4,918 bases of DNA from the IMG/VR virus record IMGVR_UViG_3300001149_000098, one strand, 5' to 3'. Numbering within the stretch: position 1 is the first letter of the stretch; every line of letters begins with the position of its first letter. The position numbers were made by a program, and so were the translations under genes. Below, piece by piece: positions 2,409 to 4,918 of this stretch. Under the pieces are notes generated by a model. The model saw only the letters and a program-made list of their open reading frames with translations. It had not been told where the DNA came from and did no database searches. The DNA is from a virus (Duplodnaviria; Heunggongvirae; Uroviricota; Caudoviricetes).

Positions 2409-2440
2409 TGTTAACTATTTGATAAATATTAAATTAATTT
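2395..2440. other. Predicted prophage-chromosome junction (att core region) between the ydfJ stub and the integrase 3' end
   Basis: The host-like transporter reading frame ends at 2408 and the integrase stop is at 2434-2436. The intervening DNA is strongly AT-rich (tgttaactatttgataaatattaaattaattttt) and contains an IHF-consensus-like 13-mer on the - strand (2412-2424). The exact core cannot be defined without the other prophage end. Confidence 0.45.
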
Positions 2441-3728
2441 TTCATTGCTTCGTTATGGGGCATGGTTGGGGCAAACTCGCTTAACTGTGTATTTAACAAA
2501 GCTACCTGTGCATTATTGTTTTCAGACATCCATTTTCCGTATACCTGAAATACCATTTGCGCATCTGCATGGCCCATCTGGTTTGCTATAAATGCCGGGT
2601 TAGCACCAGCTGTCAGCGACCAGCAGGCATAAGTATGTCTCGACTGATATGATTTTCGATGGCGGAGTCCGGCACGTTTTATCGCTGCGTCCCACATCTG
2701 CCTTATTGAGTCAACGGTAAAATGGTCACCATAATTTTTTACTCTCGCTGACACTTCAGGTTGAAAAACAAAGGTGCATTTTGTTTTTCTGTTCTGCCAT
2801 ACTCTCTGAGGTGAACATCAATGATATGCTCTTTGCTCAGTCTCGTTAATGTCATCTGACTCCGGAGAGCGTCGATTGCTGGCTTAATAAGATGAATGAC
2901 CCGATTGGTTCCCGCCTGTGTTTTTGGTACCGTGAAACGGTCTTTTGCTAAATTTCTCCTGATCATCATTGTTCCATTTTTCAGATCTATGTCCTCCCAT
3001 CCAAGTGCACACAGCTCACCAGGGCGAATGCCAGTATAAACAGAAACACACCATAAATTTTTTGCTTGCTGATTTCTGCACGCATCGATAAGACGGATAA
3101 ATTCCTCCCGCGAAAGAGGATCCGGAATGGTTCTTGATTCCTTTAATGGCGAGATCCCCTTAAACGGATTATCTGCCAGGTAACCGTTATCAACACCAAA
3201 CTGGAACACGGCGTTAAGATTTGTCATGTAATTATTTACAGTTACAGCCGATCTCCCTGGTTGTGTAACAATATAGTTACTTTTGGGGATCTGGTATCCA
3301 GTCAGTAGCTCTTTACGAACCTCCAGTAATTTTTCTTTATTAATCGATGAGGCAAGATTTTTTTCACCGATTATGCTCAGGATATTTTTGATGACGGCAC
3401 GGTATGTGTTGAGTGATGTTTTGGCGACTTCAGTTTCTTTTAGTGCCAGAAATTTTTCAGCCAGTTCTTTTATGGTTAAATCTTGTCGGGCCTCACCAAA
3501 TTTTTCCAGATTGCGTGAGGAGGGAAACTGTTTTGCATAGTCGAAAACACCAGTTTTTATTGCGTAACAAACAGAGGCGCGTAGTTCACCTGCAACGCGC
3601 CTGTTTTTTGCTGTGTCAGGAACCCCCAGATTTTCCCTGACTCTTACGCCTTTATAAACAAACCAGATACGTAATTTCCCTCCATGGTTTTCCACGCCTG
3701 TCGGATATTTCATTTCAACTTCTCTCAT
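2434..3728 (-). pseudogene. intQ: Phage tyrosine integrase (IntQ/IntR-like, N-terminal arm-binding domain), disrupted by a frameshift into 329-aa and 106-aa frames
   Basis: The 329-aa frame (2739..3728) has an N-terminal MKYPTGVE..GKLRIWF arm-binding-type motif, box I Arg (TGIRPGE) and the conserved Lys (PKTQAG). The 106-aa frame (2434..2754) has box II (SRHTYACW) and the His/Tyr nucleophile region (GHADAQMVFQVYGKW). The frames overlap at 2739-2754 and differ by one base. The shift must lie within 2742..2817 and probably sits in an A5 or T5 run (2764-2768 or 2784-2788 on the + strand). The start may be the second ATG at 3713 (MKYPTGVE), which has a better purine-rich stretch upstream. Confidence 0.85.
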
Positions 3729-3747
3729 TAGTTAGTGTGGCTTTTAG

Positions 3748-3885
3748 TCAAGTAAGATGACGTCTTGGTCTCGCTGATGCCTGGCGCTCAATCCAGCGAT
3801 CAATTTCTTCCAGGTTGTAAAAGCATGGACTGTTATCCCATGGCATACCGTCATGAGCGACATGCTTATATTCCCTTCCTTCCAT
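3748..3885 (-). CDS. Excisionase-like small protein (DUF1233-type pattern); 45 aa from the first ATG, with the open frame extending upstream to 3966 without a canonical start
   Basis: Hand translation of the - strand gives MEGREYKHVAHDGMPWDNSPCFYNLEEIDRWIERQASARPRRHLT*, with stop TGA at 3748-3750, 19 nt upstream of the int start in the same orientation (classic xis-int arrangement). The W.EG.EY...DG...FYN.EEIDRWI pattern resembles putative excisionases. The same frame continues upstream as RHVSEEQLIALKGIKKGTLKKAREKSF with no ATG, GTG or TTG. Confidence 0.5.
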   Translation of the reverse strand: MEGREYKHVAHDGMPWDNSPCFYNLEEIDRWIERQASARPRRHLT

Positions 3886-3941
3886 AAACGATTTTTCCCG
3901 GGCCTTTTTTAACGTACCTTTTTTTATTCCTTTCAGCGCAA

Positions 3942-4448
3942 TTAACTGCTCTTCGGATACATGGCGTTAACTTCTGGCATTTTCATCAACGCTTCAACGA
4001 TATGTCCGTCGAATGTTGCCATGTCTTCCTGCAACAATTCCTGTGCGCTAATAACCATATCAACGGTGATGTTTTCACATGTGTCGAACTTAACCATGAC
4101 AGCGTTCTGTACTTCAGGGGCCAGCTTGTCAAAAGTGACGTTCATCGGATCGGATTCAGTCTCAACCGGGACAAAAGAAGCAGACTCCTCATCCCAGCGG
4201 TTTTCCTGCATATATTCAGCATCCCATGAATCGAGGGCAGGGCGGGGTATGCCAGGTTTATCCTCGCAGACAATAAATTTATAAGCGCAGTCCTGAGCAG
4301 CCGGATAATGTTCCAGGAACTGCCAGTGAAATTTTGCTCGAGCACGGCGTTCGTCGCCAGCTTCAATGGCTGTGGCTACAGCCACAGCGCCTTCTTCCCT
4401 TGTTGCCAGTTCGTCAGGAATAGCGGCGCAAATAAAGACTTTACTCAT
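3942..4448 (-). CDS. Highly acidic 168-aa prophage protein of unknown function (positional counterpart of Qin ydfE)
   Basis: ORF 3942..4448 with ATG at 4448-4446 preceded by GAGG about 9 nt upstream. Hand count gives about 32 Asp+Glu against 14 Lys+Arg, with no obvious transmembrane segment or catalytic motif. It lies between ydfD and the xis-like ORF, co-oriented with the dicB operon. Confidence 0.65.
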   Translation of the reverse strand: MSKVFICAAIPDELATREEGAVAVATAIEAGDERRARAKFHWQFLEHYPAAQDCAYKFIVCEDKPGIPRPALDSWDAEYMQENRWDEESASFVPVETESDPMNVTFDKLAPEVQNAVMVKFDTCENITVDMVISAQELLQEDMATFDGHIVEALMKMPEVNAMYPKSS

Positions 4449-4541
4449 TTTGTTTTAACCTCATGACAGATTTAAGGATGAACAAATCCCTGCCATTGCT
4501 GGCATATAAGAATGAAACCGGATATTTATTACGGAACTGTT

Positions 4542-4733
4542 TTAAAGACCTGCCGGGATTTCGATATTATCCTGGTGAATAACTTTATCGACCGGGTAAC
4601 AGTTACCGGGAATTTTCTGTTCGGTTGCTGCAGTCATACACTCCTGCATTGTCCTGTGAACACTGTCTGCAATATCAACTGGCTCTCCGGAAACAAGAAA
4701 AACTGTCAGAACAAGCGCAAATGCTGAATTCAT
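4542..4733 (-). CDS. ydfD: Qin-prophage small lysis protein YdfD, 63 aa, with N-terminal hydrophobic segment
   Basis: The ORF track gives an 81-aa frame (4542..4787). The ATG at 4733-4731 (MNSAFALVLTVFLVSGEPV...) is preceded by AAGGA about 8 nt upstream and yields 63 aa, the known size of YdfD. Its start overlaps the dicB stop as ATGA. The N-terminal hydrophobic stretch fits a membrane-acting lysis protein. Confidence 0.7.
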   Translation of the reverse strand: MNSAFALVLTVFLVSGEPVDIADSVHRTMQECMTAATEQKIPGNCYPVDKVIHQDNIEIPAGL

Positions 4734-4918
4734 TGTGTACATCCTTTTGGCATCAGACGTAAACGAGCCAGCATTGAAACAATGCATATTTTATTTAATA
4801 GCTCCCGTTCTTGTTTTCTCTTGTTAATGGCATCTTCAGTAAATACAGGGTTACTGATAGTGACACCAATTTCAAAACAACCTTCAGACGTATTAACGTT
4901 TGGTAATAACGTTTTCAT
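4730..4918 (-). CDS. dicB: Cell-division inhibitor DicB (MinC-dependent), 62 aa
   Basis: 62-aa ORF starting with ATG at 4918-4916 (the window edge) and ending at TGA 4732-4730. The sequence MKTLLPNVNTSEGCFEIGVTISNPVF... is recognised from memory as DicB; size and position immediately upstream of ydfD match the Qin dicB operon. The upstream dicF sRNA would lie beyond the window. Confidence 0.75.
   Translation of the reverse strand: MKTLLPNVNTSEGCFEIGVTISNPVFTEDAINKRKQERELLNKICIVSMLARLRLMPKGCTQ

Follow-up and report, generated by a model that had tools for sequence, protein, structure and literature searches.

The open reading frame (ORF) of 168 codons that follows dicB and ydfD in the window (the whole stretch of 4,918 nucleotides analysed here) is, with a probability that we put at about 0.88, a pseudogene remnant of a lambdoid-prophage exonuclease gene, located in the Qin-like cryptic prophage of E. 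coli B and most likely functionless. It corresponds to the 5′ 20% of the full gene, and its last three codons and stop codon come from out-of-frame xis DNA. This status is ordinary and already known: a pseudogene is annotated at this locus in BL21-type genomes, and ydfE is the corresponding pseudogene in K-12. The remnant itself matters little. Of wider interest are the N-terminal and central regions of the intact gene, which is carried by about two thirds of the complete E. coli genomes.

Setting and identity of the ORF

The features identified in the window are listed in Table 1. Positions 3700–4918 match E. coli BLR(DE3) at 100% identity. The gene order (dicB, ydfD, the ORF, the xis and int remnants, then rspB and rspA on the opposite strand) fits the Qin-like cryptic prophage found beside rspAB in this strain. 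dicB is the first gene of the operon segment within the window. ydfD is directly 5′ of the ORF and belongs to the same transcription unit; dicB, ydfD and the ORF, which is just downstream, are all carried on the minus strand, as expected for members of the dicB operon. According to RegulonDB, as cited in PMC11430063, transcription from the K-12 dicB promoter can cover dicB, ydfD and the pseudogene ydfE; DicA repression is described there as the normal state of the operon.

An Rfam search of the window revealed no RNA family, and the number of sites found in a promoter and terminator scan of positions 3700–4918 was not above chance expectation. A weak terminator-like hairpin, in which a 5-bp stem is followed by GGGATTTGTT, occurs at 4491–4504 on the minus strand, between the ydfD stop codon and the start of the remnant ORF. 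Two such sites were observed in the whole scan against 0.8 expected, and the hairpin may be a chance occurrence; if real, it would reduce read-through into the remnant ORF.

Table 1 Features of the window. Positions are numbered from the first letter of the stretch.
Feature	Position	Strand	Basis
34-aa ORF, MTIEKHERSTKDLVKAAVSGWLGTALEFMDFKSH	2304–2408	plus	Matches K-12 YnfP (36 aa); differs only at the very C-terminus
Integrase pseudogene (intQ equivalent)	2434–3728	minus	Arm-DNA-bind_2 and Phage_integrase (Pfam); PGAP "frameshifted"
xis remnant, lacking approximately the first 19 of 83 codons	3748–3953	minus	Alignment to HannyBb xis; PF06806, positions 35–69 of 70 only
ORF, 168 codons plus TAA, ATG start	3942–4448	minus	Called from sequence
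Foreign tail AAG AGC AGT TAA (Lys-Ser-Ser-stop)	3942–3953	minus	Out-of-frame xis DNA, junction comparison
Deletion junction, 7-bp microhomology GTATCCG (9/10 over GTATCCGNAG)	3954–3960	minus	Comparison with HannyBb
Exonuclease codons 1–165 (ortholog of the K-12 pseudogene ydfE)	3954–4448	minus	HannyBb identity, phrog_2082, PGAP
GAGG Shine-Dalgarno, 10 nt 5′ of the ATG of the ORF	4459–4462	minus	Read off sequence
ydfD (lysis protein, DUF1482)	4542–4733	minus	PF07358, E 1.5e-24; PGAP annotation
dicB (cell-division inhibitor)	4730–4918	minus	PF05358, E 3.3e-40, full length; PGAP annotation

The product of the ORF (18.9 kDa) contains 32 Asp/Glu and 14 Lys/Arg residues, corresponding to a net charge of −18 and a pI of 4.35. 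It has no hydrophobic segment, since the highest Kyte-Doolittle mean over a 19-residue span is only 0.73. A preliminary description of this DNA had reported the strong acidity, the lack of a hydrophobic segment and the location in the dicB operon, and all three points are confirmed. In contrast, its interpretation is partly supported: the ORF is the first fifth of an exonuclease gene, and its product is not a small stand-alone protein.

The ORF is a genuine coding sequence rather than a chance frame, as phage protein profiles match it at E 4e-123. In the PHROG search, phrog_2082 ("exonuclease") matches the ORF at E 3.9e-123, but only over profile positions 1–166 of 823. Residues 1–165 match the N-terminus of the 823-aa HannyBb phage exonuclease (XNS40216.1) without a single difference. 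Similarly, tblastn searches against phage genomes identified 17 records in which the 165–166 residues of the ORF are 90–100% identical to the start of an annotated exonuclease. In HannyBb, the 823-aa exonuclease gene is followed by xis (83 aa) and then by int (431 aa), and the window shows this gene order too.

The intact protein consists of four parts, namely an acidic two-domain N-terminal module, a RecE-like centre with a zinc ribbon, an acidic linker and a DEDD domain. The last of these, PF16473 (Rv2179c-like DEDD 3′-5′ exonuclease), spans residues 642–813 of the HannyBb protein (E 2.4e-67). Neither this domain nor the RecE-like central region (residues 262–627), which is removed by a 2,095-bp deletion, is found in the window ORF; in all, it lacks approximately 658 residues of the intact protein. 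Local Pfam-A, NCBIfam and PADLOC searches assigned the ORF product to no family. Because the catalytic parts are absent, the ORF should be regarded as a fragment (pseudogene) of the phrog_2082 family and not as a functional member of it. The PGAP annotation of the E. coli BLR(DE3) RefSeq record agrees, labelling the locus a pseudogene, "exonuclease VIII; incomplete; missing C-terminus". A decayed remnant had been mentioned in the preliminary description as an alternative, and it is this alternative that fits best.

Deletion junction and distribution in E. coli

In BLAST alignments with HannyBb, the minus strand of the window falls into two collinear blocks, which are 2,095 bp apart in the phage. 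Window positions 4918–3951 correspond to positions 4531–5498 of the phage locus (99.4% identity), and window positions 3960–2401 to positions 7584–9144 (99.5% identity). The blocks overlap at window positions 3951–3960. The motif GTATCCG is present in one copy in the window and in two copies in the intact phage, at approximately codon 164 of the exonuclease gene and codon 14 of xis. At the point where the ORF switches to Lys-Ser-Ser-stop, the intact protein runs on as ...MYPELKLH.

A deletion of 2,095 bp between the two GTATCCG copies thus took away exonuclease codons 166–823 and the intergenic region, and xis lost approximately 19 codons at its start. Judging from this anatomy, the deletion may have arisen by replication slippage or by illegitimate recombination at the microhomology. 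As a result, the reading frame enters xis out of phase and ends after three codons.

The neighbouring genes are also damaged. Translation of the xis remnant from its first in-frame ATG, at 3885, would yield just 45 aa. PGAP annotates here an apparently intact 64-aa "xisR" (WP_048339841.1) with an ATT start codon at 3940–3942, which overlaps the stop of the exonuclease remnant; this call looks like an annotation artefact. The integrase gene is split into ORFs of 329 and 106 aa by a 1-bp deletion near position 2783, the single gap in the alignment with the 431-aa HannyBb integrase. Given the split integrase and the truncated xis, the prophage should be unable to excise. The 34-aa ORF, which is located between rspB and the prophage end, is unannotated in the BLR(DE3) record. 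It may be the stub of the host gene interrupted by the prophage.

The distribution of the junction was analysed in 5,426 complete E. coli genomes by using a 181-bp probe spanning it. The whole probe was found in 32 genomes, all of them of laboratory strains of the B lineage (BL21, C41/C43, BLR, NEBExpress, T7Express and others). The complete junction was not found in non-B E. coli genomes, as every other genome listed matches one side of the probe only. Of the 5,426 genomes, 3,537 contain the intact 2.47-kb gene over at least 80% of its length.

K-12 carries a different truncation of the same gene. ydfE (b1577, Qin) occupies the same chromosomal place, after dicB-ydfD and before intQ, rspB and rspA, and its first 165 residues are identical to those of the window ORF; both are N-terminal fragments of the phage exonuclease. 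However, the reading frame of ydfE is interrupted after 255 native codons by an IS2E insertion that took the place of xis and the 5′ end of intQ as well, whereas the B-lineage copy retains 165 codons up to the microhomology deletion, which did not reach int and left xis largely preserved. The gene was cut independently in K-12 and in B. Three other E. coli proteins (P0025, P0042 and P0079) result from other internal deletions of the exonuclease gene, in which residue ~63, ~95 or ~133 is joined to the DEDD domain. The gene seems to be unusually prone to internal deletion, and its long low-complexity acidic middle is possibly the reason.

In PMC11430063 and PMC6928379, ydfE is treated as a pseudogene. 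A membrane-vesicle proteomics paper lists "YdfE" among E. coli proteins, a listing taken into account here by name alone (PMC10954253). The literature search on ydfE returned pseudogene mentions and this one proteomics listing, and no functional study.

The N-terminal module and the fate of the fragment

A set of 1.84 billion cluster representatives, searched exhaustively with phmmer, yielded 68 relatives of the N-terminal module. In the divergent relatives long enough to be judged, the module is N-terminal in proteins of 680–920 aa; the exception is P0124, in which it starts at residue 227. C-terminal domains were analysed in ten relatives: Pfam recognised PF16473 in one, a DUF3799 PD-(D/E)XK-like domain in another and no domain in the remaining eight. 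The latter are distant full-length homologs of 683–798 aa with the same N-terminal module. A literature search for Rv2179c in combination with prophage exonucleases found nothing. Although the family is small, the wide distribution of the full-length gene makes the module very common in E. coli.

Many database entries of 100–290 aa match the module, as do PHROG families of 81 and 257 positions covering the same region, and the ORF could accordingly be seen as a genuine short gene, encoding a small prophage accessory protein that resembles the exonuclease start. However, most of the short entries are contig-end pieces labelled "partial", and many of their contigs measure only a few hundred to a few thousand bases; the remaining few, found on long contigs or in complete genomes, are copies altered by other rearrangements or truncations (for example the three internal deletions mentioned above). 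Moreover, the divergent relatives that are long enough carry the module within large proteins, and the end of the ORF is made by a junction absent from all non-B genomes. A short stand-alone family is rejected on the basis of the junction and of the partial or rearranged nature of the short entries, and we consider it extremely improbable.

The AF2 model of residues 1–277 (mean pLDDT 88.7) features an alpha/beta domain at residues 1–95 and helices at 111–121, 129–140, 146–156, 158–161, 165–178 and 185–206, all with pLDDT values of 96–98. Both parts of the phrog_2082 module, alpha/beta and helical, are represented in the ORF, which retains the alpha/beta domain (pLDDT >90) and the first four helices of the helical domain (103–162). 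Since the cut falls after residue 165 and helices are modelled at 165–178 and 185–206, the helical domain is incomplete and lacks both of its final helices. For residues 141–168, the values drop from 96–97 to 70–90 when the 168-aa ORF itself is modelled (mean pLDDT 91.4). Among 27 N-terminal homologs (22–68% identity to the reference), conservation extends past residue 165 to approximately residue 206 and includes the block MYPE...WPEIK..W.K. The homologs carry the precomputed Pfam labels PF27430 and PF27432. Database fragments labelled PF27432 alone map to exonuclease residues ~80–300, and one covers just 131–199; the PF27432 domain therefore very probably straddles the truncation point.

With the nuclease domain gone and the second domain deprived of its last two helices, the fragment would most likely be functionless. 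It may still be translated, because the start codon and the ribosome-binding site are kept and the ORF is placed behind dicB-ydfD, and might still be made once DicA repression is lifted. Some points argue against a complete lack of function: translation signals are intact, domain 1 is complete and the sequence has not diverged from that of functional phage copies. Furthermore, K-12 too keeps the N-terminal part, and "YdfE" appears in one proteomics listing (PMC10954253), by name.

The acidity of the product had been mentioned as a possible hint of a DNA mimic or an anti-defence factor of the Ocr or ArdA kind. Ocr, from phage T7, and ArdA are both small and strongly acidic, and their genes are located in early or accessory regions of mobile elements. 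The window ORF is similar in this respect and, judged from composition, shares their high negative charge (−18 in 168 aa). However, the charge is family-wide. In 27 homologs, the mean net charge of the equivalent region is −12.6, ranging from −3 to −22, and the intact 823-aa exonuclease has a net charge of −65. Residues 101–206 of the intact protein carry −3, and residues 101–165 about −7; the removed residues 166–206 are therefore net basic, and as a result the fragment looks more acidic than the module really is. As far as composition can tell, acidity is a trait of the exonuclease family, not a mark of this ORF or a sign of DNA mimicry.

Matches to proteins of this kind are also lacking. 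In Pfam, NCBIfam and PADLOC, the ORF fell into no family of mimics or anti-defence proteins. The PDB was searched by sequence with the family profile (A1) and with P0105, one of the eight distant full-length homologs in which Pfam recognises no domain, and nothing significant was returned (best E 0.18). The structure prediction and Foldseek search for a mimic fold suggested in the preliminary description were performed; no hit at E ≤ 0.001 was obtained against PDB or BFVD (viral predicted structures), and no mimic-like fold emerged. The mimic reading thus receives no sequence, profile or fold match. The result warns against taking a truncated ORF for a small acidic anti-defence protein.

A broader possibility is that the fragment is a domesticated module with a function of its own, which would, for example, bind a host or phage partner and, once expressed from the dicB operon, act on a host target or block defence or restriction as Ocr and ArdA do. 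Several observations are in line with it. Domain 1 and the Shine-Dalgarno and ATG are intact, negative charge is conserved across the family, and the 5′ part of the gene has been kept in both K-12 and B after independent truncations. The module occurs with different C-terminal nucleases and is therefore a portable unit, and the N-terminal part of RecE-type proteins is presented as having no known function in PMC11611040. Nevertheless, beyond the domain being intact, nothing was found to support autonomous binding by domain 1, and we regard domestication as unlikely. The more specific proposal that the acidic module is an autonomous partner-binding unit, directed for example at a host protein of DNA metabolism or defence, and that the B (165 aa) and K-12 (255 aa) fragments are active when dicB is derepressed, is quite unlikely; if true, "ydfE" would be the third host-directed product of the operon besides DicB and YdfD.

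The fragment might also act as a dominant-negative or decoy against the full-length exonucleases of incoming or co-resident lambdoid phages. Full-length copies are indeed very common (the 3,537 genomes mentioned above), and the fragment is identical in sequence to full-length N-termini. However, the idea is pure conjecture and no partner of the module is known; moreover, the operon is normally repressed by DicA, as stated in PMC11430063, and this form of the gene is limited to one lineage. A decoy role is highly unlikely. A pseudogene remnant, most likely functionless, is the reading that we retain.

Comparison with full-length exonucleases and RecE

Full-length phrog_2082 exonucleases, such as the HannyBb protein, the Tritos "exonuclease VIII" and the "exodeoxyribonuclease encoded by cryptic prophage CP-933P", have an N-terminus of 165 residues that is 90–100% identical to that of the window ORF, and the full-length gene is similarly located between ydfD-like genes and xis-int. 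In contrast to the ORF, they feature the rest of the helical domain, the RecE-like centre, the linker and the DEDD domain. No recT-like annealase gene is annotated beside the intact gene in HannyBb.

The relationship to RecE (exonuclease VIII of the Rac prophage) concerns the central region. Residues 278–592 of RecE align with residues 262–627 of the intact exonuclease at 39% identity (BLASTP, E 1e-61), and both proteins share a CxxC...CxxC zinc ribbon in this region. The "exonuclease VIII" label was presumably assigned to the fragment because of this resemblance; the fragment thus bears a name derived from a region that it has lost. No similarity to RecE was detectable in the retained residues 1–165, and in hhalign the family profile aligns only from approximately residue 165 on. 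A resemblance of the fragment to the RecE N-terminus, considered as a candidate, was rejected by both hhalign and BLASTP. Since the alignment to the RecE profile begins at approximately residue 165, residues 1–164 could represent a self-contained evolutionary module.

The nuclease domains also differ. The C-terminus of RecE is a PD-(D/E)XK 5′-3′ nuclease, whereas that of the intact exonuclease is a DEDD 3′-5′ exonuclease; neither Exonuc_VIII (PF06630) nor another PD-(D/E)XK nuclease domain was found in the ORF by Pfam. Relative to RecE, the intact 823-aa protein is a mosaic, in which a shared centre is flanked by a different N-terminal module and a different nuclease (phage HannyBb, L002:5001–7472, compared with RecE of Rac, L004:3787–6387).
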